A DNA stretch of 64,000 nt from the sequence record MN894885.1; one strand, given 5' to 3'. A program made the translations under genes and the position numbers. This stretch comes from Escherichia phage Ec_Makalu_001. This document shows, one piece after another, positions 7,982 through 22,569 of this stretch (positions are counted from its first letter, which is position 1; every line of letters begins with the position of its first letter). The notes beneath the pieces are model-generated. The model saw only the letters and a list, made by a program, of their open reading frames with translations, was not told where the DNA came from and did no database searches.

Positions 7982-9711
7982 ATGACGCATTAACATCATT
8001 TCGCGGGATGCGCAAGGAAGCGGAAGAAAATCCGATTGATAAACTTAACAAATTAGATAAACTTGATTCTATTGATAATTTGCAAGCCGCTACCGAATTG
8101 GTGGCGGAGACAGTAGAACAAAAATCTAATGAAGTTGTTGGTGCGGTAGAGGATAACACCGCAGCCAATGAATTAACGGCAGAGAATACACAATCTACCG
8201 CTGGCAATACCCAAAAAACTTATGAAGAATTGCAAAAACTCAATAATTTCTCTTCTCAGATGAATGAGAAATTACGTGGTTTTGGCGTTATGATGGAACG
8301 TAGATTTGGTGTTGTCAGTAAAATGGCGAGCGGTATTGGTGCGATTGAAGAAGCACTGAAAAAACCGGAACAACCGCAAACAATGCCATCACCTCAGCCA
8401 GTTTTGCCTACTGTACCGGAACAGCCTAATAATGACAACTATCAAGGTCTTCCAAAGAAAAAACCAGATGTTGATGACCGAAAGAAAAAGAACGCCACAG
8501 ATAAGCGTAATGCGGATTCTATGGAGAATCTTATTAAAGTTGTTCGTGGTGGATTTAAAGAAACCATAGGAATCTCTAATAAGGTCTTAGGGATGTTATT
8601 TAAGATCACCTTAACCGCAATGGCAGAAGCCGCAAAATGGGGTGCTATTTTGATGGGTATTGTTTTCGTCATTGATACCCTGATGGTTCATTTCAGATAT
8701 TGGAGCGATTTATTCGAAACAAAATTCGATGATTTTATGGATAAGGCCGGAGAATGGGCTGGACCAATTAGTGATATTCTAACAACTATTCGTCAAGTTC
8801 GAGATTATTGGTCTAAAGGCGAATATGGAGAATTAATTAAATCTCTTGTTATGGGTATTGGTGATGCATTCTATAAAACCTTTATCCAACTTGATCGAAT
8901 TATCACTACTGGTATTGCTAAAATTCTTCGCATGATTCCTGGTATGGGTGATTATGCCGATAAGTTAGAATATGGTGCTTTAAAATCTGCTGTCGCTCAA
9001 GGATATACGCCAAATGAAAGAGAACTCGAATTAATGGATAAGGTCGAGTCTGAACACGAAAAAGACAAGTATGGAGAGCGCACAGGGTGGACCGGAAAAG
9101 CCCGTGATATTGGCGAAGCTATCGGGGATTCTATTAAGGATAAAGTTAACGAAGGTCTTGTTAGTCTGGGTTGGCGAGATCAAAAGGATGTTGACGCAGA
9201 GAAGCGACAAGAAGAATTAAAGCGCGGAGAATATGAGTCTGTTTCTGCTGAACAACGATCTGCTAGTCGTAAACTTAGAATTAAAAGTGAGGGCGCGATC
9301 AACAATATTAATGAAGTTATGGAGAATTTGAGCGGTGACTATGACAAAGAAAGAATGGGAGAGTTGAAAAAGGATATTGATGTTTACCGTGAGAAAGTTC
9401 AAGATCCTACATTAGTTGAAAGTGATCGTTCTCAGTTAGAGCGTCTTATTGAAAAATTTGATGAGATGTATGCTGATAAAACTAAGGGTGTTGTGCAAAC
9501 ACAGCCAGTTCCTGCAACTGAAACGGAAACAGCAAAACAAGCGGAACGTACTGAACAAATGCAGAAACAAGCTGCAATCCAGCAACAAACGACAAATCAG
9601 ACCTCAAACGTAAATAATACACAAATTGTAACAAACAATAGAACTATTAAACAGGGTGCACCAACAACTAGAATTGATGCCCCAGGTACAATTAATATGG
9701 GGAACTTTTAA
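7978..9711 (+). CDS. 29: baseplate hub subunit / tail length determinator gp29
   Basis: 577 aa (T4 gp29 ~590 aa); coiled-coil-rich, Q/N-rich C-terminus; synteny. Confidence 0.7.
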   Translation: MNDALTSFRGMRKEAEENPIDKLNKLDKLDSIDNLQAATELVAETVEQKSNEVVGAVEDNTAANELTAENTQSTAGNTQKTYEELQKLNNFSSQMNEKLRGFGVMMERRFGVVSKMASGIGAIEEALKKPEQPQTMPSPQPVLPTVPEQPNNDNYQGLPKKKPDVDDRKKKNATDKRNADSMENLIKVVRGGFKETIGISNKVLGMLFKITLTAMAEAAKWGAILMGIVFVIDTLMVHFRYWSDLFETKFDDFMDKAGEWAGPISDILTTIRQVRDYWSKGEYGELIKSLVMGIGDAFYKTFIQLDRIITTGIAKILRMIPGMGDYADKLEYGALKSAVAQGYTPNERELELMDKVESEHEKDKYGERTGWTGKARDIGEAIGDSIKDKVNEGLVSLGWRDQKDVDAEKRQEELKRGEYESVSAEQRSASRKLRIKSEGAINNINEVMENLSGDYDKERMGELKKDIDVYREKVQDPTLVESDRSQLERLIEKFDEMYADKTKGVVQTQPVPATETETAKQAERTEQMQKQAAIQQQTTNQTSNVNNTQIVTNNRTIKQGAPTTRIDAPGTINMGNF

Positions 9712-11737: not shown

Positions 11738-12219
11738 TTTGCTAAATCATTGCAATATTTTAGTGCCTTAGTTTGAAACTCTGCGCTGTTAAGTTCTTCA
11801 TAACGGTCATAATCACCGTTTAATGCTGCCTTTCTTGCTTCTTGTTCTATCTGCATGTCAGACATGATAATACAACGATCCCGCGCTTTCATCTTCTCAA
11901 GTTGTATAGACTCTTCTTGTTGCTTGCGCAATTCTTCTTGATGCTTCTTTTCTTCTCGTGCTTTCTCTTCCCGCGCTTCTTTGATTGCATCTTTGAACAT
12001 CTGCGTTTGTGGTGCTAAACCAACTTTAACGCGATCCACGTCTCGACGTTCCATTTTAGAAATAAAGCATGATTCGATCTGGTCATCGCTTGCATATGCT
12101 GCTTTACATTCACGAAGCAAGAAAACCGGATCTGATTTAGCATTCATCATAGCTTCCATGTTAGTACAACCAGTAAGCATGAATGCAGCCGCAAGACCAA
12201 TCAGTTTAATCATTTTCAT
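11734..12219 (-). CDS. putative lipoprotein (signal peptide with lipobox LTGC)
   Basis: 161 aa; N-terminus MKMIKLIGLAAAFMLTGC; charged coiled-coil-like remainder. Confidence 0.5.
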   Translation of the reverse strand: MKMIKLIGLAAAFMLTGCTNMEAMMNAKSDPVFLLRECKAAYASDDQIESCFISKMERRDVDRVKVGLAPQTQMFKDAIKEAREEKAREEKKHQEELRKQQEESIQLEKMKARDRCIIMSDMQIEQEARKAALNGDYDRYEELNSAEFQTKALKYCNDLAK

Positions 12220-13040
12220 TTAGTCACCTCACCGAAAATTGTAAATTGTCTACGATTCTCATCGCCGAAAGATTCTACTACGTCGTTTACCTTGATGCAA
12301 GTCCCGCGCGGTAAAATTACTTCACATTCGCAAGGATTCCATGCAATAGACCCAACAACAAAACCTTTATGATCTTTTACGTCAATTACCCATGATACAT
12401 TACAAGAATGTTGCATCTTTCCGGTCATTGATTCATATCGATTCTCACAATAAAGGCTAGTGCTGTTTGAAAGCCATCCTCCAAAGATGATCGGTGTCAT
12501 GCTGGTCGATACAAAGTTTTTAAAGGTAAATTCCTTATCTTCAATAATACGCTCTATTGTCTGAATGTCAAGATGTTGACCGCGATAAAGAGTACCGTTT
12601 AACTTTTCGGTTTTATCCATGACACAATCCATCAAATCGACAATCTCTGATATCTCATCGGTCATGTCTTCTTCCCCTAAGAGAGCACCATTTACCCATT
12701 CGTATTGTTCAGACACATAATCGCAGATTGCATTATATTCTGCTGGGGTTATGTTGTTATGTTTGTAATGTTTGAATACATTATCTCCAAAATCTTCGGA
12801 ATGTACTTCATACATCACATTAATGATTTTCTTGACAAATCCATAATCTTGCGTTTCTCGCTCAAGGAAACGGATAACTTTCACGTAATCATCAAAGTTA
12901 ATATGATCGCTGATCATTTCAGTGATCATGTAACCATTAATCCCCTCAATGCCATATGTTTCGATGTAATTATCCATACGTTCCATCATTGATTCGCGTG
13001 ATTCTTCTGAAAGGCGAAAATCCTGTAATTTCTTGAACAT
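12216..13040 (-). CDS. ADP-ribosyltransferase domain protein (Alt/Mod-like, short form)
   Basis: 274 aa; R-S-E triad pattern shared with adjacent Alt: LYRG, FVSTS, CECEVILPRG. Confidence 0.6.
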   Translation of the reverse strand: MFKKLQDFRLSEESRESMMERMDNYIETYGIEGINGYMITEMISDHINFDDYVKVIRFLERETQDYGFVKKIINVMYEVHSEDFGDNVFKHYKHNNITPAEYNAICDYVSEQYEWVNGALLGEEDMTDEISEIVDLMDCVMDKTEKLNGTLYRGQHLDIQTIERIIEDKEFTFKNFVSTSMTPIIFGGWLSNSTSLYCENRYESMTGKMQHSCNVSWVIDVKDHKGFVVGSIAWNPCECEVILPRGTCIKVNDVVESFGDENRRQFTIFGEVTK

Positions 13041-13119: not shown

Positions 13120-15171
13120 TTACATTTTAAATTTATCCGGCATAGCGTCTACAGACACAAGATCAGCGATAAGCTGACGTAGAGTTGCCTTATCTGCTTT
13201 CTTACGTTCGGTTTTAGCTTCGGTAATGAAGCTGGAGAAAGACAGGTCAGAAGCAGGTTTAACAACACCTTCACGGATGAATGCATCACCGTCCGCGATC
13301 ATCTCACCAGATTCTTGTAATGCTGCCAGTTCATTTTTGTTCATAATATGTGCCTCGATGTAATAAGTTTCTTGTGAATCCGTCGATGCCGTAGCACGAG
13401 TTACCGTATCAAAGGATAACACAACACCGCGAGGAAGTAAAATCTCGCATTCTTTGTAAGCAAATGCTTTGTTACCTACTGGCAATACAGGGATGTTTTC
13501 CGCGCCAGCAATGGAGAAAGCAACATTAGCGCCACCTTCACCGCGAGATCCAGCCATAGAATCAACACCAGCAACGGCACTAGCCACGTTTGCATTCCAT
13601 CCACCAAAAATATTAGGTGCAAGGGAAGTGCTCACATAGTTTTTAAAGTAAAACGCTTTTTGCTTACGTGCAGTTTCCCACATTTGAGAACGGAAGTCCA
13701 TACCACGATACAAGATAGTACCTGGATCAAGTTTAACACCATAGTTAGCAAATGCGTTATCCAGTGCATCACACATCTTGACCAATTCTTCTGGGTCTGC
13801 GATGCCTTCAAACTCTTCCAGCTTACGGTCGGTTAGGAAGTTGTTCATATTGATGTATGCTGCATCCGCATATTCGCTCAACACAAAACCTTCCGCGCCA
13901 GGCAGATCAAGATCAATATCTGCCATCATTTCACCCATGTTGCTAGCAATTGCTTCAAACATACCGGAAGCAACATTACGCAGGGCATCGGTTTTAATCT
14001 GCGTGATGTGACTACGCAGCATTTCAGCTTTTACATCTGCTGGCATAGACTGGTCGACGCGATCCATTGCTAGGGCGGTGATCTTGTTTTCAAACACTTC
14101 TTCATTCATGATTTCTTTTAAGCGTTTGATTGATGCTGCGATAACTTCCGCAGACAACGGATCATATTGATCCTGAACTTTTACCAGTTCGCTTACTGCG
14201 TATTTTGCATCGGCTTCGCTTTCAAAAATAGTACGCATGAAACCATAGCGAGTGATAATATCACTTGTCCAGTCATTCAGAGAACGGGCGGTTGAACGTT
14301 CTAAGGCTTGACGGTCAATCAGAGTATTAAACTGTTTCTTAGGTTCTGCTTCGGTGATATCTTCTTCCGGTTTAAGATTAATTTTTTCTGGATGATTCAC
14401 ATAGTCGCTGTTATAGGTCGCTTGAGTTTTCAGCATTTCTTCTTTAGTCAAACGAGATTTAGCCGCTACGCGTTGTTCTGCTTCCGCGTTTCGTTCTTCT
14501 TCTGACACAAGACTAGCCGCATACGCCTCATCTTTAGTCAGAGATTCACCAGTAGCCTTAGATACCCAGCGATCACCTAAATCACTTTCTACTTTAGTGA
14601 ACAGGGATTCATCGAGTTTAATCCCTTTAATCTTATCAATCGCCATCCCGCGACGTTTGACAACAACTAAAGCGATCTTTTTGCTGGTCATTACTTCCTG
14701 CTGGAATACTTCAAACTTCGGTGTACGACGCACCAAACGCTCTATAACGCGCTTAACCAGTTCGGTCTTACCTTTCATGCGGGATACGTTAAAACGGAAC
14801 ATAACAGCGTCTAATTGCGCTTTACGGGCTGTTTCCATAACCACATCAAAAGCACTTGACATAACTGCAATTGGGTTATCTCCTAGACCATTTTTAAGCT
14901 GTACAATACGACCGCTTTTGTTCATTTCGCACAGTACAACATGTGCGGTCTTGTCACCCATACGAATGATTTTAGGTGTTTTGTTGGTGAAGTTACAAAG
15001 ACGGACAATCACATCTTTATCGCGTGTCTGTACTGCAAAAAGCTGTTTAGGATTCTGCTTAGGCTTTAAGCACTGTACCGGAGCAATACTGCCAAAGTTT
15101 TCTTCCTCTTCCGTCAACAGCCATTTCTCGAAAGATTCAATCATTAGATCGTCGATTTCTAAGTTAAACAT
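13120..15171 (-). CDS. alt: Alt ADP-ribosyltransferase (packaged, RNA polymerase-modifying)
   Basis: 683 aa (T4 Alt 682 aa); motifs YRG / YVSTSL / ECEILLPRG; T4 synteny. Confidence 0.85.
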   Translation of the reverse strand: MFNLEIDDLMIESFEKWLLTEEEENFGSIAPVQCLKPKQNPKQLFAVQTRDKDVIVRLCNFTNKTPKIIRMGDKTAHVVLCEMNKSGRIVQLKNGLGDNPIAVMSSAFDVVMETARKAQLDAVMFRFNVSRMKGKTELVKRVIERLVRRTPKFEVFQQEVMTSKKIALVVVKRRGMAIDKIKGIKLDESLFTKVESDLGDRWVSKATGESLTKDEAYAASLVSEEERNAEAEQRVAAKSRLTKEEMLKTQATYNSDYVNHPEKINLKPEEDITEAEPKKQFNTLIDRQALERSTARSLNDWTSDIITRYGFMRTIFESEADAKYAVSELVKVQDQYDPLSAEVIAASIKRLKEIMNEEVFENKITALAMDRVDQSMPADVKAEMLRSHITQIKTDALRNVASGMFEAIASNMGEMMADIDLDLPGAEGFVLSEYADAAYINMNNFLTDRKLEEFEGIADPEELVKMCDALDNAFANYGVKLDPGTILYRGMDFRSQMWETARKQKAFYFKNYVSTSLAPNIFGGWNANVASAVAGVDSMAGSRGEGGANVAFSIAGAENIPVLPVGNKAFAYKECEILLPRGVVLSFDTVTRATASTDSQETYYIEAHIMNKNELAALQESGEMIADGDAFIREGVVKPASDLSFSSFITEAKTERKKADKATLRQLIADLVSVDAMPDKFKM

Positions 15172-16290: not shown

Positions 16291-16623
16291 TTATAGTCTC
16301 CTGAATGGATCATCACGTAAATCAATATCTTTTAAGAACTCATCCCATGAATGGCGGATATTGTTCTTAATTCTCCAGATAAGCGCAGGGATTGAACGCT
16401 CTCCCATCTGGAAGTAAGGATCATATGATCCATATGCCCAATATGCTACTACAATTCCACAATCGGCGCAATAATATTCTATTTCACTTGCTGGCGACCA
16501 AAGTCCATCAATATGATCACGGATCTTGCTTTCGATGTTATGGCTATGGCAATCAGGGCAACGGATGCAATGACCTTGTTTATCGTAATTTGACGTTAGC
16601 GAATACTTAAACAATCTCATCAT
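16291..16623 (-). CDS. zinc-ribbon protein (CxxC...CxxC)
   Basis: 110 aa; CIRCPDCHSH ... CADCG; ATGA overlap with upstream gene. Confidence 0.45.
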   Translation of the reverse strand: MMRLFKYSLTSNYDKQGHCIRCPDCHSHNIESKIRDHIDGLWSPASEIEYYCADCGIVVAYWAYGSYDPYFQMGERSIPALIWRIKNNIRHSWDEFLKDIDLRDDPFRRL

Positions 16624-17336
16624 AGATCCTTATTGGCTTCAAATACTGCCTTTGCGAATCCTCGCGGGGTAAGTGACCTGATAGTCTTTGTTCTGGTTCC
16701 TTTCCCGCCTAGCTTAGAATGCTGTTTACTGTACCCTTTATTAATCTGCAACGGTTTCTTTTCTGGCATTATAAAGCCTTGTCCGGTCCATAAGCAAGTC
16801 TTTTTCGGGTACATATCACGGGCGGCAATATACTCAGGAAACGTAGGATGCTTATCATCTTCCGGCAAATAACCGCCATATTCCCACGGATGGAACATGT
16901 AATCAGGCTTACGCCACATGCTAGAGATAACGCTTACAGGATTCTCTATCATGTAGGGAACTCCTAGCCATTCACCCAAATAAGCGGTTATTTTAGCTGC
17001 CCTTACATCATGAACTTGAATTAATGGTCCTTGTTCTCGTTTCTTTCGTTCAAAGTGCGCAGCGCCACTAACAGCTAAATTGGTGCATGGTGGGAATGCA
17101 AAGATAATATCCGGTTTCCCCCATTCAAGGTCCATTGCTCTTTCCAGCCAATTTAAATCAATCCATGTGTTTACATATGTAATGTTTGGATGTTCAAATC
17201 GGGTATTATATTTTTTGTATGTACCGTGGTCGCCATCGTCAGCATTAAAGCAGATCACCTTATGACCTGCTTTAGCCCATTCTAACCCCATTATCCCCGA
17301 TCCGTCAAAGTTGCAGAATATTAATTTTTGTTTCAT
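16620..17336 (-). CDS. putative DNA (cytosine-5) methyltransferase-like protein (short)
   Basis: 238 aa; motif I-like FCNFDGSG, motif IV-like FAFPPCTNLAVSG (Pro-Cys), motif VI-like MIENP; no clear motif VIII/X. Confidence 0.4.
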   Translation of the reverse strand: MKQKLIFCNFDGSGIMGLEWAKAGHKVICFNADDGDHGTYKKYNTRFEHPNITYVNTWIDLNWLERAMDLEWGKPDIIFAFPPCTNLAVSGAAHFERKKREQGPLIQVHDVRAAKITAYLGEWLGVPYMIENPVSVISSMWRKPDYMFHPWEYGGYLPEDDKHPTFPEYIAARDMYPKKTCLWTGQGFIMPEKKPLQINKGYSKQHSKLGGKGTRTKTIRSLTPRGFAKAVFEANKDL

Positions 17337-17578
17337 ATACGCCCCTTTAACCCAACACAGATTTTAGAAGGTTCTTTGCCGTGCCACATTAAGTAAATTC
17401 CGTTAATGCGTCCTTGTTTTGTATATGATTCTTTTCTGATCTTCTTATAGTGTCGTGCTTCCTCAGCCGATTGTTTAGAATGTCGATCATAAAGGAAGAG
17501 GAACAAAGGCCAACCATTAGCGGCCTTAATGCAGTTATTCAAAAATTCCTTATTTCGTTTAATTAATTTTCTTTTCAC
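17333..17578 (-). CDS. hypothetical basic protein (81 aa)
   Basis: ATGA overlap on both sides; member of the coupled cassette. Confidence 0.4.
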   Translation of the reverse strand: MKRKLIKRNKEFLNNCIKAANGWPLFLFLYDRHSKQSAEEARHYKKIRKESYTKQGRINGIYLMWHGKEPSKICVGLKGRI

Positions 17579-17826
17579 GCTGCCCCCATTGGTTTGATAG
17601 TAACAGAATCTAAAAGACCTTTGTTAGCCAGTTCGCGGCAAGTTTTCAGATCCGCAACTTCCCAGCCAGCCGCAATAAGGTTATCAATGAGGCTGTTAGC
17701 AACTTCTTCGCTCATGAAAGAGCACTGTTTGCCGATGGTGTAGCGTACACGCTGTAATTTCAGTTTACGGAAGCCTTTAACGTTCAGGTCTTTAGCGATT
17801 TTCTTTGCGGTTTCGATGTTAGCCAT
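17575..17826 (-). CDS. hypothetical protein (83 aa), first gene of coupled cassette
   Basis: RBS GGAGAATCA; promoter 17867-17895 upstream. Confidence 0.45.
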   Translation of the reverse strand: MANIETAKKIAKDLNVKGFRKLKLQRVRYTIGKQCSFMSEEVANSLIDNLIAAGWEVADLKTCRELANKGLLDSVTIKPMGAA

Positions 17827-17866
17827 TGTTTGATTCTCCTAAGTGGTATCTCGTCTTGATGGTTGT

Positions 17867-17895
17867 ATTGTAGGGGAGTTATCCTCCCCTGTCAA
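17867..17895 (-). promoter_or_regulatory. early sigma70-like promoter, palindromic spacer (TTGACA-GGGGAGGATAACTCCCC-TACAAT); drives 5-gene cassette
   Basis: Minus-strand -35/-10 with 17-bp inverted-repeat spacer, A-rich UP region. Confidence 0.55.
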
Positions 17896-17909
17896 CACTT
17901 TTTATAAAA

Positions 17910-18077
17910 TTATTTGTTAATTTCTGGTGCGTTGCTAGGATAGTAACCTTCTTTAACTCCGAGGTATTTCGCAACCATCCCTACAATCTTCTGTGCTACT
18001 ACAATGTCAAATTTCAGATAATCTTCGCCGTGGGTTTCAATGATATATGCTTCACATGCTGCTTTAGTCTCGAACAT
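17910..18077 (-). CDS. hypothetical protein (55 aa), duplicate copy A
   Basis: Manual ORF MFETKAACEAYIIETHGEDYLKFDIVVAQKIVGMVAKYLGVKEGYYPSNAPEINK; near-identical to 21193-21360. Confidence 0.45.
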   Translation of the reverse strand: MFETKAACEAYIIETHGEDYLKFDIVVAQKIVGMVAKYLGVKEGYYPSNAPEINK

Positions 18078-18110
18078 TTTGATTCTCCTATTTCGTTTCG
18101 GTATGTGTGT

Positions 18111-18139
18111 ATTATAGGGGATCTCCCGATCCCCGTCAA
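18111..18139 (-). promoter_or_regulatory. early sigma70-like promoter, palindromic spacer (TTGACG-GGGATCGGGAGATCCCC-TATAAT)
   Basis: Minus-strand; consensus -10; two GATC in spacer. Confidence 0.55.
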
Positions 18140-18153
18140 CAACTTTTTTAAAA

Positions 18154-18435
18154 TTATTCGTGATTAGTTTCGATATTGTGCATTTTGCACCAGTTCAGCC
18201 AATCGCCAAGATCTTGATAGTTGATGCTTTTATCTGCTGCCATCGTTTTTGTCTTGATACCCATATGTGCGTTATGAGTAAGCATTTTTACAGTGAACTC
18301 AATTTTATCGCCTTTAGCTTTAACATCAACCAGTTTGGTCCACTGGCTACCAGCACCGCGAATGTTCATACCAACGATGTTTCCGATGTATGCTTCTTTG
18401 TTGTTCAGGATTTCGGTTGCTTTGATGAATTTCAT
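18154..18435 (-). CDS. hypothetical protein (93 aa)
   Basis: ORF with RBS and upstream promoter 18111-18139. Confidence 0.45.
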   Translation of the reverse strand: MKFIKATEILNNKEAYIGNIVGMNIRGAGSQWTKLVDVKAKGDKIEFTVKMLTHNAHMGIKTKTMAADKSINYQDLGDWLNWCKMHNIETNHE

Positions 18436-18505
18436 TTTTGATTCTCCAGTTCGTTTCGGTATGGGTGTATTATGCTATGTTCTTACTTTGGTGTCAACAA
18501 CTTTT

Positions 18506-18775
18506 TTAGATATTTTCAGAAATAAATTTTAAAACTTGACGTAAATGTTTCTCATCTTTGATAGTCGCCGGAAGTTCTTCTTTTACTTCCTGTGCAAGAT
18601 AGATATTTCCGTTCCAAGTGAAAGACCCGTCTTCGTTTACGCGATAGCTGAACATCCATTCGCAATCATTTTCGATTTCATATACACACAGAAGGGTGTA
18701 ATCTTCAAAGCTATTGATTTCAAGGTCGAAGCCGTGGCGTTTTGCAAAGTTGGTAGTGGTTTTAGTCAGTGCCAT
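18506..18775 (-). CDS. hypothetical protein (89 aa)
   Basis: ORF with GGAGAATCA RBS and upstream promoter-like motif. Confidence 0.45.
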   Translation of the reverse strand: MALTKTTTNFAKRHGFDLEINSFEDYTLLCVYEIENDCEWMFSYRVNEDGSFTWNGNIYLAQEVKEELPATIKDEKHLRQVLKFISENI

Positions 18776-18901
18776 TGTTTGATTCTCCTAAGTGGTATCT
18801 CGTTTCGATGGGTGTATTATGCTATAGGCGTGATCAGGTGTCAATGCCTTTTTTAAAATTTTATGCAATAAAAAAGCCGACACTAAGGTCGGCTAATAAA
18901 A

Positions 18902-19210
18902 TCATTTAGGCAAATAATCATTCAGTGCAATCCGGTCGGCATGTTCCGGCGTTACATCAATCGCAATCACTTTAACGCGTGCTTTCTTGCGACCTGGGTT
19001 TTCTCGTAACCAGTGCTCATGACCGTGAACATTTTTATACTGCGATGCTTCTTCGAAGGTACGGATCGGACCAGGGTAATCAGCGTAAAGGATCTCTAGG
19101 TCATCGGTGATGTAAAAATATACGTTGTAATTACTGTTCTCTAGCTTAAGCAGAGACTTTCGGAACATTGGGAGATTTTCGCGGGTAAATTCAAAAGTAA
19201 TATCTTTCAT
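18902..19210 (-). CDS. HxHW-family small protein (paralogue A)
   Basis: Start chosen at ATG 19208-19210 with RBS; motif HGHEHW ... VIAIDV. Confidence 0.4.
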   Translation of the reverse strand: MKDITFEFTRENLPMFRKSLLKLENSNYNVYFYITDDLEILYADYPGPIRTFEEASQYKNVHGHEHWLRENPGRKKARVKVIAIDVTPEHADRIALNDYLPK

Positions 19211-19233
19211 AGTATTATCCTCAATAGTTGGAT

Positions 19234-19255
19234 GAAAAGGGGGCTTAACGCCCCA
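19234..19255 (-). terminator. rho-independent terminator (repeat of GGGGCTTAACGCCCC hairpin)
   Basis: Hairpin followed by T-run on minus strand. Confidence 0.5.
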
Positions 19256-19259
19256 TATA

Positions 19260-19547
19260 TTAAAACAGTCCTTCCTGTACACCGTAGTAGAGTTCGTCGC
19301 TGATAATTTCATTAATGCGACGGTGTGCATATTCCTGATTTGCGAAGTTGTCAGCAAGTTCTACTTTAGTTTCACCGTCATGAGTCCATTTAGTGATAAC
19401 TTTACCATCTGCAAATTTGAAGTTGAACTCTTTAGCTACTGCATCGCGTACCAGACGTGCGAACTTGTTGTTACGGATTGCATTATCGGTTTCGTGTGCA
19501 GCGTGAGCAAATTTGTTAACTTTCAGAGTGATAGTGATGTATGCCAT
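19260..19547 (-). CDS. hypothetical protein (95 aa)
   Basis: ORF with GGAGAATCA RBS; hairpin terminator downstream. Confidence 0.45.
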   Translation of the reverse strand: MAYITITLKVNKFAHAAHETDNAIRNNKFARLVRDAVAKEFNFKFADGKVITKWTHDGETKVELADNFANQEYAHRRINEIISDELYYGVQEGLF

Positions 19548-19630
19548 AATTTGATTCTCCTAGTTAGAAAGTGTATCTCGTTTCGATGGGTGTATTATGC
19601 TATACACCCGATCTTATGTCAACACTTTTT

Positions 19631-19909
19631 TTATAAAATAATTTTTTGATATTTTTCTATGATGTTTGTGTAATCCACATCAACCGCTATCACCGTTGCT
19701 TCGAATCCACCGTTTAGCCAATGGCTATGGTCATGATCGTGAAAGAAACCAAGACCAGTACGAAGACCTTCTTTATATTCGGCGCGTACATTTAGATCAT
19801 CATCGATAAACAGATAAAACCATGAATTTTTACTAGGATTGATGATACAACCTTTCAGATTAGGGAGAATATCACGACTAAGAATAAACTTATCACCTAC
19901 TTTGAACAT
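19631..19909 (-). CDS. HxHW-family small protein (paralogue B)
   Basis: Start at ATG 19907-19909 with GAGGA RBS; motif HDHSHW ... VIAVDV. Confidence 0.45.
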   Translation of the reverse strand: MFKVGDKFILSRDILPNLKGCIINPSKNSWFYLFIDDDLNVRAEYKEGLRTGLGFFHDHDHSHWLNGGFEATVIAVDVDYTNIIEKYQKIIL

Positions 19910-19913
19910 AATA

Positions 19914-20234
19914 TTAGTCCTCACTTATAAGGTCAAACCAATTGTTTTTCGCATAATGCTTAATGCGTGCTTGATCTGCTTCCGCTGGTGATAGATTCCA
20001 TGCAACCACTACAACTTCTGACGCGTCGTCATCCGTTTCTGATACCCAATGATTGTGATTCATACAGTTATTTGCGATCGAGTGAGCAAATGATTTCATC
20101 ACTGGAGACGTATAATCATAGTAACGGATTTTCAGATTTTCATCAACATACAAGTAGATCGTATAAGGTTTATATTCAGTAACCAGTAACAGACAGTTAC
20201 GCAATTCTGGGAAAATCTTTTTAGTTAATTTCAT
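19914..20234 (-). CDS. HxHW-family small protein (paralogue C)
   Basis: Start at ATG 20232-20234 with GAGGA RBS; motif NHNHW ... VVVVAW. Confidence 0.4.
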   Translation of the reverse strand: MKLTKKIFPELRNCLLLVTEYKPYTIYLYVDENLKIRYYDYTSPVMKSFAHSIANNCMNHNHWVSETDDDASEVVVVAWNLSPAEADQARIKHYAKNNWFDLISED

Positions 20235-20235
20235 T

Positions 20236-20454
20236 TTATAATCCTCGGTCGCGGCTATAGTACACGGTACGCCATACAATTTCATGTTTCGTGTCGCTCC
20301 AGCACACGATCTCATTTACTCTTAAATCTTTGTTATCAACAAAAGATGAACATTGTGACGCTTCTTTCATCATTTTATCTGCTGTTTTCTCATCAAATAC
20401 AGCACAGATTTCTTTATACACTCGATAATCTTTGAATTGACTCTGGATACCCAT
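20236..20454 (-). CDS. hypothetical protein, paralogue of 20414-20671
   Basis: Shared pattern QFKDYRVYKEICAVFDEKTADKMMKEASQC vs KFKDYKAYQQILRVYDAEFAEKMMEDASKC; start assigned to internal ATG. Confidence 0.35.
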   Translation of the reverse strand: MGIQSQFKDYRVYKEICAVFDEKTADKMMKEASQCSSFVDNKDLRVNEIVCWSDTKHEIVWRTVYYSRDRGL

Positions 20455-20671
20455 AATTAACACCATTCCAACCAATTGTTTTTGAGAAAACGTTTATCCA
20501 CTGTTGAGTGTAGCATGTTTCTTTCCATGATACAATACGAGTAGAATAATGGTTTTTGTTTCCAGAAAAGGACGGGCATTTTGATGCATCTTCCATCATC
20601 TTTTCGGCGAACTCCGCGTCATATACCCGCAGGATCTGTTGATATGCTTTATAATCTTTAAATTTGCTCAT
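20414..20671 (-). CDS. hypothetical protein, paralogue of 20236-20454
   Basis: 85-aa ORF; tandem paralogue pair. Confidence 0.4.
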   Translation of the reverse strand: MSKFKDYKAYQQILRVYDAEFAEKMMEDASKCPSFSGNKNHYSTRIVSWKETCYTQQWINVFSKTIGWNGVNYGYPESIQRLSSV

Positions 20672-20936
20672 AATTGTTAACTACCTTATCAGCTTCTTTT
20701 ATTGTTTTTACATCAACTGCGATAATCCGTAAAGGTTCGTCGAAGGTCCACCAGTGGTCATGAATATCAGCTTGTGATTTATCACCAAAGGAATCACGAA
20801 TATCATTTTTACATTTATAGCTAATATGGCCTTCATAGTCAACATAAAGGTAATTATCGAAAATCGGCGTTTTTAAGATCATACCGAAAAATCTTTCTTT
20901 GTGTGTCTTATCCAGTGTTGCAGTAATTCGCATCAT
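20658..20936 (-). CDS. HxHW-family small protein (paralogue D)
   Basis: 92 aa; motif HDHWW ... IIAVDV; GAGGA RBS. Confidence 0.45.
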   Translation of the reverse strand: MMRITATLDKTHKERFFGMILKTPIFDNYLYVDYEGHISYKCKNDIRDSFGDKSQADIHDHWWTFDEPLRIIAVDVKTIKEADKVVNNYEQI

Positions 20937-20948
20937 AATATATTCCTC

Positions 20949-21128
20949 TTAGAAAGGGATGGTCATTTCTTGAGCTTGTACATTCTCGTTAGGATTAAAC
21001 TTCATCCAACCGATATTGTCTACCAGCATATGTACATTTTTATCATATCCTACGTGAGTAGTCAACACTAAATGTGCTTTGCCTTCAACGATGATTTCCA
21101 TGTACTTCTGAACTTCGATAGCTTTCAT
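20949..21128 (-). CDS. hypothetical protein (59 aa)
   Basis: Manual ORF below track cutoff; GGAGAATCA RBS; promoter-like motif upstream. Confidence 0.3.
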   Translation of the reverse strand: MKAIEVQKYMEIIVEGKAHLVLTTHVGYDKNVHMLVDNIGWMKFNPNENVQAQEMTIPF

Positions 21129-21192
21129 TTTGATTCTCCGTTTGTTTTCTTGATGGGAGTATCTTACTACTCCCTTTAATCATTGTCAACTA

Positions 21193-21360
21193 TTATTTGT
21201 TAATTTCTGGTGCGTTGCTCGGATAGTAACCTTCTTTAACACCCAGATATTTTGCAACCATTCCGGTGATCTTCTGTGCTACTACGATATCGAATTTCAG
21301 GTAGTCTTCACCGTGGTTTGCTACAATGTATGCTTCGCATTCTGCTTTAGTCTCGAACAT
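21193..21360 (-). CDS. hypothetical protein (55 aa), duplicate copy B
   Basis: MFETKAECEAYIVANHGEDYLKFDIVVAQKITGMVAKYLGVKEGYYPSNAPEINK; start at ATG 21358-21360 with GGAGAATCA RBS; promoter 21395-21423. Confidence 0.45.
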   Translation of the reverse strand: MFETKAECEAYIVANHGEDYLKFDIVVAQKITGMVAKYLGVKEGYYPSNAPEINK

Positions 21361-21394
21361 TTTTGATTCTCCTATATCTCGTTGGTATGTGTGT

Positions 21395-21423
21395 AGTATA
21401 GGGGATCTGCGATCCCCTGTCAA
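21395..21423 (-). promoter_or_regulatory. early sigma70-like promoter, palindromic spacer (TTGACA-GGGGATCGCAGATCCCC-TATACT)
   Basis: Minus-strand; upstream of duplicate copy B. Confidence 0.5.
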
Positions 21424-21428
21424 CAACT

Positions 21429-21723
21429 TTATAATGCTTTATACGCGTATTTCATAAATTTGTCTGCCACTTCATTGGCATGTTCAGATTCTACGCCTGA
21501 TTCGAGAACAATAGCTAGGTCGGTTTCGTCATTCCCGCCGTACCAATGATTTGATGTTCGATTTTTTTCAATTGGAAATTGGTCACTTTTATCTGTGCGA
21601 CAAAATACATCTAAATGCTCGTCGATGTAAAAGATCCAATCTTCATAAAGAATAACGGTATTAGCAAGATTTTTATTGCCTTCAACGAAAGGTTCCGCGA
21701 CAAATAGCTTAGTTTGTTCCATA
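21429..21723 (-). CDS. HxHW-family-like small protein (paralogue E, divergent)
   Basis: Motif YIDEHL ... SNHWYGG ... LAIVLE; start at ATG 21721-21723 with GAGGA RBS. Confidence 0.35.
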
Positions 21724-21987: not shown

Positions 21988-22308
21988 TCACACAAAATGG
22001 CGTGTCAATGCTTCTTTTGCGGTTCCGCTAAGACTTTCAATCTCGCCTGGCATAACATCAACCGCCAGAACTTCTACAACATCTTCGGACCCTAACCAGT
22101 GAGTATGGCCTTTGTAGAACTTGATAACCAGACCACCTTCCTCGTCCCATTTAACGCTATCGCTAGCCCACCACACATCACCGTCGATAAAGTTGATGTA
22201 AAGCACACTACGCCACATTGAATTAATTACTTTCAATACTGCGCCTTTCATCTCTTCCACGGTATGGTCTTCCATTTTGAAGACCTCACCTACCTGAACT
22301 TTTGCCAT
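21988..22308 (-). CDS. HxHW-family small protein (paralogue F)
   Basis: 106 aa; motif GHTHW ... VLAVDV; GAGGTGA RBS. Confidence 0.45.
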   Translation of the reverse strand: MAKVQVGEVFKMEDHTVEEMKGAVLKVINSMWRSVLYINFIDGDVWWASDSVKWDEEGGLVIKFYKGHTHWLGSEDVVEVLAVDVMPGEIESLSGTAKEALTRHFV

Positions 22309-22325: not shown

Positions 22326-22505
22326 TTACATAACAATCACGCCAGCCGTTGAAAGTTGATGTTTCAACTGAGCATTTTCTGCTACCGTCAAATCAATGAT
22401 TTCTTGTGACGCTGCAATCATATATCCATTGGTGATATTGTTTTGCATCAGTTCAATGGTCTCTTCGTTGTAGCGGATTTTAGCGATGATTTCGTTGAAG
22501 TTCAT
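22326..22505 (-). CDS. hypothetical protein (59 aa)
   Basis: Manual ORF below track cutoff; promoter 22540-22569 and GGAGAATCA RBS. Confidence 0.3.
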   Translation of the reverse strand: MNFNEIIAKIRYNEETIELMQNNITNGYMIAASQEIIDLTVAENAQLKHQLSTAGVIVM

Positions 22506-22539
22506 GTTTGATTCTCCTAGTTCGTTTCGGTATGTGTGT

Positions 22540-22569
22540 ATTATAGGGGAGTTTAACCTCCCCTGTCAA
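22540..22569 (-). promoter_or_regulatory. early sigma70-like promoter, palindromic spacer (TTGACA-GGGGAGGTTAAACTCCCC-TATAAT)
   Basis: Minus-strand; 18-bp inverted-repeat spacer. Confidence 0.5.

Follow-up and report, generated by a model that had tools for sequence, protein, structure and literature searches.

Do two small genes that lie 3.3 kb apart in one phage genome and encode almost the same protein record a recent duplication, or something older? We addressed this question in Escherichia phage Ec_Makalu_001 (sequence record MN894885.1), of which a stretch of 64,000 nucleotides (nt), hereafter the window, was analysed. A previous sequence-only reading of the window had reported a near-identical 168-bp gene present twice and had attributed it to a recent intragenomic duplication. 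Both 55-amino acid (aa) open reading frames (ORFs) are indeed present, and their translations agree with that reading:

17910–18077, minus strand: copy A, predicted 55-aa early gene, orthologue of ORF191 of phages RB49 and phi1 (RB49p191 synteny), family phrog_8009
21193–21360, minus strand: copy B, predicted 55-aa early gene, orthologue of ORF205 of RB49 and phi1 (RB49p205 synteny), family phrog_8009

Our analysis indicates that copies A and B are very probably old paralogous cassettes of the promoter-early stem-loop (PeSL) type, orthologous to RB49 ORF191 and ORF205, that would be expressed early and that serve as direct repeats for recombination.

The two 168-bp ORFs form direct repeats 3,283 bp apart. 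Their proteins share 50 of 55 residues (91% identity; BLASTP, E = 7e-38), so the description "near-identical" holds for the protein, but pairwise alignment of the DNA gave only 85.7% identity (144/168), with 24 differences spread over 21 of the 55 codons. Sixteen of the differing codons are synonymous and five change the amino acid (positions 7, 13, 14, 15, and 32). The corresponding NG86 estimates are 0.047 for the non-synonymous distance (dN) and 0.94 for the synonymous distance (dS), and synonymous sites are near saturation. The resulting dN/dS of 0.05 indicates that both copies are protein-coding genes under purifying selection, which gives a direction to the earlier suggestion that the small protein is under selection. 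The differences are unevenly distributed: 20 fall within the 80 nt between nt 20 and 99 of the ORF and 23 between nt 20 and 120, with a single difference at nt 121–168, while the first 19 nt are nearly identical. No third copy was found in the window by tblastn. The list of ORFs, with its 60-aa cut-off, drops copy A and gives copy B as 77 aa starting from a TTG at 21424–21426, which is the TTG of the copy B −35 hexamer TTGACA; the earlier remark that the ORF track missed one copy and over-extended the other into its promoter was thus correct. Relatives annotate both genes as 168-bp coding sequences.

A comparison with related phages places the pair in time. The 4.3 kb around both genes is 99.7% identical to Escherichia phage Ec_Makalu_003 (Straboviridae, genus Krischvirus, RB49-like T4-type coliphages), and 58 phage records match the region, 35 of which do so along 80% or more of its length. 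The copy A protein is 100% identical to the A-type copy in phi1, JSE, Makalu_003, and others, and the RB49 proteins ORF191 (NP_891762) and ORF205 (NP_891776) are 98–100% identical to the window copies and occupy the same positions. The A/B pair lies at syntenic positions in RB49, phi1, and JSE. A tblastn search of 50,697 phage records located the 55-aa protein at 121 places, distributed over 70 records. In twelve of them the identity is below 80%, and the ones that were inspected are siphoviruses with one place each; the remaining 58 are Krischvirus records, of which, as worked out from the tblastn counts, 51 have two places and 7 have one. Two copies are thus the usual number in the genus, which answers the question of copy number raised by the sequence-only reading.

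The haplotype comparison covered 33 copies, taken from 19 genomes plus the window. The reading frame is intact in all 33 copies, as it is in the siphovirus homologues at 40–72% identity. Across the 19 genomes, 21 sites in nt 20–99 consistently tell A-type from B-type haplotypes, each of which is fixed there, the sole exception being a conversion tract in phage Brandy. Between genomes, dS is 0–0.22 for the orthologues of A, of B, and of seven neighbouring genes, whereas A and B differ from each other by a dS of 0.84–1.05. The divergence of A from B is therefore several times older than the genus as sampled. A and B are old paralogues under purifying selection. The window copies are themselves a pure A and a pure B haplotype with one exception: nt 7 of copy B (window position 21354) is G, producing the substitution Q3E. 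G is found at this site in all A copies and in 0 of 17 other B copies, and could represent a point mutation or a short conversion tract. Makalu_003, despite its 99.7% overall identity, keeps the usual B states at nt 7 and in the loop of the PeSL upstream of copy B.

These results bear directly on the proposal that, shortly before sampling, one cassette gave rise to the other at a distance of 3.3 kb. The 91% identity of the proteins, the near-identity in DNA of both ends of the ORFs (first 19 nt and last 48 nt), and the location in a region known for cassette shuffling (PMC2839356) are what such an event might leave behind. The 20 differences within the 80 nt at nt 20–99, the overall dS of 0.94, the synteny of both copies in RB49, phi1, JSE, and about 51 of 58 records, the orthologue dS of only 0–0.22, and the fixation of A and B haplotypes across the genus all contradict it. 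The near-identical ends are better explained by conversion tracts, for which nested breakpoints are seen in other genomes, and shared flanks rule out that the second copies of relatives were inserted independently. A recent duplication is therefore extremely improbable, and that part of the sequence-only reading was not upheld. Similarly hard to sustain is the idea that the repeat is a non-coding regulatory or RNA element, or an artefact of assembly collapse or expansion. Such short ORFs, in a region where promoter motifs recur throughout, would suit a non-coding element, but the 16 synonymous against 5 non-synonymous codon differences, the dN/dS of 0.05, the conserved frame in all copies and in siphovirus homologues, and the lack of a match in Rfam argue strongly otherwise. 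An assembly artefact, the doubt that the sequence-only reading had itself voiced, is excluded by the 24 differing positions, the synteny, the fixed haplotypes, and the recurrence of the two copies in more than 50 independent assemblies.

What kind of unit is present twice? PeSLs were described for phi1 and RB49 and consist of an AT-rich tract, sigma-70 −35 and −10 boxes with a stem-loop between them, a Shine-Dalgarno sequence (SD), and an ATG (PMC2839356). Copies A and B are each preceded and followed by such an element:

18078–18153, minus strand: PeSL193/191, upstream of copy A (−35 TTGACG at 18134–18139, −10 TATAAT at 18111–18116, SD AGGAG at 18085–18089)
17827–17909, minus strand: PeSL191/190, downstream of copy A, the promoter cassette of ORF190 at 17575–17826 (−35 at 17890–17895, −10 at 17867–17872)
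21361–21428, minus strand: PeSL206/205, upstream of copy B (−35 TTGACA at 21418–21423, −10 TATACT at 21395–21400, SD AGGAG at 21369–21373)
21129–21192, minus strand: PeSL205/204, downstream of copy B (−35 TTGACA at 21184–21189, −10 TAAGAT at 21161–21166)

Strong sigma-70-type promoter matches with 17-nt spacers therefore stand on both sides of each copy (at 21423, 21189, 18139, and 17895), each with a stable stem-loop, in line with the promoter cassettes that the sequence-only reading had placed there. We took promoters from a promoter scan, as a strict PeSL regular expression misses cassettes with a CATAAT or TAAGAT −10 box. The promoters of A (TTGACG-17-TATAAT) and B (TTGACA-17-TATACT) both match the consensus at 11 of 12 positions and are preceded by the AT-rich tract AAAAAAGTTG or TATAAAGTTG, and an AGGAG SD lies 7–8 nt before the ATG in both cassettes. 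The stem-loop before copy A (GGGGATC-GGGA-GATCCCC, 18117–18134) has a predicted folding energy of −14.9 kcal/mol (z −3.3) and the one before copy B (GGGGATC-GCA-GATCCCC, 21401–21417) −13.2 kcal/mol (z −2.9). The PeSL191/190 hairpin reaches −19.4 kcal/mol (z −4.7). In PeSL205/204 the −35 box begins 3 nt past the copy B stop codon, the promoter match is 10/12 with a 17-nt spacer, and the stem-loop GGGAGTA...TACTCCC overlaps the −10 box (−10.6 kcal/mol, z −3.2). Both copies thus combine a near-consensus promoter and AT-rich tract, a G/C-rich stem-loop, the SD and start of an ORFan, and a location in a hyperplastic region, the features by which PeSLs are recognised. None of the known RNA elements in Rfam was matched. 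The loop GCA of PeSL206/205 in the window (21408–21410), next to its TATACT −10 box, is unique among the compared genomes. Similarity between the A and B loci runs from the AT-rich tract before the −35 box to the stop codon, and its upstream part is generic to PeSLs: the A 5' untranslated region (UTR) is closer to the PeSL at 22503–22569 than to the B 5' UTR.

Each copy is thus an autonomous cassette with its own promoter, a stem-loop in the 17-nt spacer, a strong SD, and a 55-codon ORF. The spacer stem-loop is thought to attenuate transcripts arriving from upstream, and host RNA polymerase would transcribe the two copies as separate short units right after infection. We infer this immediate-early, separate transcription from the anatomy of the cassettes, from general T4 biology, and from the tested PeSL206/205 promoter: fused to lacZ, the cloned cassette before copy B reached about 13,000 Miller units (PMC2839356). 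The same study reported activity for the PeSL211/210 stem-loop in promoter and terminator tests, and detected and sequenced an RB49 mini-circle with ORFs 191–194, hence with the orthologue of copy A (PMC2839356).

As direct repeats, the cassettes enclose a segment that recombination between them affects:

18078–21192, minus strand: interval between the direct repeats, ten small early genes, orthologues of ORF193, ORF194, and ORF197–204 (gene list from the Makalu_003 annotation)

Phages Cognac and FL04 carry a single copy each, with ORF206–209 from the B side upstream and ORF190 and ORF189.1 from the A side downstream. According to blastn, both lack an equivalent of window positions 18147–21192, that is, ten genes and one copy (3.28 kb). 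The crossover in Cognac lies between −14 and +20, as B-like sequence extends across the 5' UTR to −14 and A-like sequence begins at nt 20, while in FL04 it lies at the −35 box or stem, the sequence being B-like only up to there and A-like from the loop onward. The crossover points differ, and the two deletions are therefore independent. Brandy, JK32, and UPWr_E1 lack cassette A and have one chimeric PeSL193/190 between ORF193 and ORF190, whose 5' part derives from PeSL193/191 and whose 3' part derives from PeSL191/190, with the junction between the −10 box and the SD. As judged from its sequence, this chimera is the footprint predicted for excision of a mini-circle or, in reverse, its integration. 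Larger deletions on the cassette A side are present in MIZ4 and an IMG/VR contig, and copy A of JSE is preceded by a chimeric PeSL. One or the other copy is missing from some viable isolates.

Exchange between the paralogues is also visible within the coding sequence. Copy B of Brandy is A-like at nt 51–75. In kvi, kaaroe, Cognac, G2494, and an ECD7-like genome it is copy A that is mosaic, turning B-like at nt 99, 108, 114, or 117 and staying so to the 3' end. Three 3' haplotypes at nt 141 and 153 (TA, GA, and AG) occur in both paralogues. Conversion tracts of this kind explain why the window copies differ at one site in nt 121–168 and at 23 sites in nt 20–120. Mosaic alleles, one expectation of gene conversion, are thus present, but homogenisation within a genome is not: of the 13 genomes with both copies, none has the same 3' haplotype in A and B, and the centre of the gene is paralogue-specific in all genomes. 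Taken together, the chimeric PeSLs and deletion junctions are comparative evidence for the kind of recombination between PeSLs that yields insertions, deletions, or mini-circles. The deletions, the absence of cassette A, and the mosaic alleles bear out the active cassette shuffling that the sequence-only reading had suggested, the general mechanism of which was already published (PMC2839356).

The 55-aa protein itself belongs to a small family. Both copies match the unnamed family phrog_8009 over residues 1–55 of its 55 profile positions (E = 6.8e-38 and 1.4e-38), and no match was found in Pfam, NCBIfam, or PADLOC, nor any at the level of structure. No significant profile or structural match to known defence or anti-defence families was found. 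A HMMER profile search of 1.84 billion representative proteins returned three real clusters, the rest being spurious matches in long proteins, and all seven matches of a word-indexed search for remote homologues were to the family itself or to chimeric fragments. A search of the genomes of 185,579 bacterial and archaeal species turned up no bacterial or prophage copy, and IMG/VR contains only two loci. The family is very small and confined to Krischvirus and a few enterobacterial siphovirus genera, with identities of 70–72% in Swiduovirus and Skatevirus and about 40% in Sashavirus. We found no literature on the function of RB49 ORF191 or ORF205. AlphaFold2, using eight sequences, gave a moderately confident alpha/beta model in which the predicted order is beta-alpha-alpha-beta-alpha-beta (predicted local distance difference test score (pLDDT) 79, predicted template modelling score (pTM) 0.59).

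The siphovirus homologues always have a conserved gene of 68–70 aa after them, as in swi2 (locus L015, 4001–4358), SeSz-2 (locus L016, 4001–4358), and Sasha (locus L017, 3992–4386). This partner is itself unannotated and gave no match among the Krischvirus records; some lambdoid phages (HK225, mEpX2, mEp213, and an Stx2c phage) have it on its own. A weak tblastn match to it at window positions 8514–8603 was rejected as spurious, as it lies inside a large plus-strand gene. A further allele, P0003, 80–83% identical to the window copies, was found on a 7.6-kb Logan contig (SRR5584643; locus L018, 3723–4165), directly after a homologue of ORF194 with which its stop and start codons overlap; there is no PeSL, and oppositely oriented genes with PHP and 2-hydroxyacid dehydrogenase domains follow. 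The contig could be an unlisted phage lineage or a chimeric assembly.

Under the proposed explanation, the product would be a dispensable accessory protein aimed at a host component, for host takeover or counter-defence, a role that we suggest with low confidence. Two copies may provide a doubled early dose, in keeping with the dosage relevance that the sequence-only reading had thought likely, or two specificity variants differing at five fixed residues. The cassettes, of about 240 bp each, are direct repeats used by the phage recombination system, and the relatives illustrate three results of this: loss of the 3.28-kb interval, removal of cassette A by way of the PeSLs on either side of it, and patchy conversion between A and B, mostly in the 3' half. 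Several points weigh against this explanation. The early timing of A and B in Ec_Makalu_001 is one that we infer. The absence of cassette A in Brandy-type genomes could be ancestral instead of the result of excision, as the published model works in both directions. At the variable 3' sites (nt 141 and 153), recurrent mutation instead of exchange between A and B could be part of the cause. Only one of the five AlphaFold2 models reached a pLDDT of 79, the other four scoring 49–66. Finally, the origin of the pair is not polarised, and duplication in situ and arrival of a diverged allele on a PeSL mini-circle fit equally well.

The last of these points amounts to an alternative in which A and B are xenologues, one of them a diverged allele acquired laterally from another phage as a PeSL mini-circle. 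The published PeSL model permits reversible integration of mini-circles, and one with ORF191 was detected in RB49; diverged alleles exist elsewhere (P0003 on the Logan contig at 80–83%, siphovirus homologues at 70–72%); and in several Krischvirus genomes a single PeSL stands exactly where cassette A is missing. We nevertheless consider lateral acquisition unlikely. A and B are 91% identical to each other, and none of the outside homologues found exceeds 83% identity to either of them; a donor lineage is not known; and copy B of Brandy contains an A-like tract even though Brandy lacks cassette A, which places A within reach of the Brandy lineage. Duplication within the lineage is the origin favoured by the sequence comparisons, in which every outside allele is more distant from A and B than these are from each other.

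A bolder version of old paralogous cassettes, which we regard as decidedly improbable, is that the 55-aa protein is the first member of a new small fold family, made up of counter-defence or takeover factors that act on the host and are common to T4-type myoviruses and virulent enterobacterial siphoviruses, with Krischvirus keeping two specificity variants and the paired cassettes acting as built-in recombination arms. If the cassettes were such arms, a ten-gene, 3.3-kb accessory block would be lost or exchanged as a unit.

The surroundings of the pair are typical of a hyperplastic early-gene block: the region lies between the alt genes and the DNA ligase gene, is crowded with hypothetical genes, and has all its genes on the minus strand. 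The promoter scan gave seven strong matches in 17.8–21.5 kb, and the interval 18078–21192 contains five further strong matches. A canonical intrinsic terminator (AGCCGAC...GTCGGCT followed by a T-run) is located at 18875–18894 on the minus strand, directly after ORF197 and just upstream of the PeSL of the ORF194 orthologue. It is also annotated in Makalu_003, and elsewhere in the block genes are separated by PeSL stems only.

Other paralogous genes occur nearby. A much older, multi-copy family of early proteins of roughly 92–106 aa flanks and interleaves the 55-aa genes, with members at 18902–19210, 19631–19909, 19914–20234, and 21988–22308, all on the minus strand, and further members recognised by eye at 20658–20936 and 21429–21722. 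Pairwise identities are 26–29% (blastp E-values from 2e-12 to 3e-4), a common motif '...HW...V(I/V)A(V/I)DV' can be seen by eye, and each member matches a different PHROG of unknown function. The orthologues of ORF201 and ORF202 (20236–20454 and 20414–20671, minus strand) are adjacent, overlapping paralogues with 39% identity over 38 aa (E = 1e-6), and their lengths and overlaps differ among Krischvirus genomes. Two adjacent Alt-like ADP-ribosyltransferase paralogues (12216–13040 and 13120–15171, minus strand) are 37% identical over 109 aa, and the longer of them matches a Makalu_003 gene annotated 'ADP-ribosyltransferase exoenzyme'. For a 238-aa gene at 16620–17336 (minus strand), Makalu_003 gives the annotation C-5 cytosine DNA methyltransferase, and RB49 and phi1 give DNA methyltransferase without further detail; at its position JSE, Cognac, G2494, and PHB13 have a 672-bp hypothetical gene, which may represent a cassette replacement.

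How does the pair compare with known systems? As a finding it is ordinary and essentially already known, the genes being annotated in more than 50 records and the cassette system published and tested. It carries little weight as a discovery, and the genome is essentially a deposited one. The pair does mark a conserved early protein under purifying selection in both myoviruses and siphoviruses, a low-priority candidate for host-interaction screens. In siphoviruses the homologues lie in short moron-like modules beside terL, oriented against the flanking structural genes, with a sigma-70-like promoter upstream that was read by eye. These modules differ from the Krischvirus cassettes in that the gene is single-copy, the 68–70-aa partner follows it, and there is no PeSL stem-loop. 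A precedent for a host-directed role is T4 55.2, likewise a small, non-essential ORFan of a T4-type phage, which is an inhibitor of Escherichia coli topoisomerase I (PMC4396842); no sequence or structural similarity between it and the 55-aa protein was found, and the comparison is an analogy only.

The closest comparison is with the PeSL system of RB49 and phi1 (Arbiol et al. 2010, PMC2839356; Comeau et al. 2014, PMC4122927), which has the same genus, genome region, and cassette architecture as the window. RB49 ORF191 and ORF205 are direct orthologues of copies A and B, from which the B allele of the window differs by its unique Q3E substitution; their paralogy is not mentioned in the searched text of PMC2839356 or PMC4122927. 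The window lacks ORF192, ORF195, and ORF196 of RB49, and its layout is therefore phi1-like. The crossover between the −10 box and the SD in the chimeric PeSL of Brandy, JK32, and UPWr_E1 corresponds to the excision product that the PeSL model predicts. In contrast to the events in the PeSL papers, the homology used for recombination here runs through the ORF, giving a 3.28-kb multi-gene deletion in two isolates and conversion tracts within coding sequence. The small added value of the pair is as a natural illustration of the PeSL model, in which the same ten-gene block was lost in two independent isolates, a cassette seems to have been cleanly excised in others, and coding sequence was converted between old paralogues.

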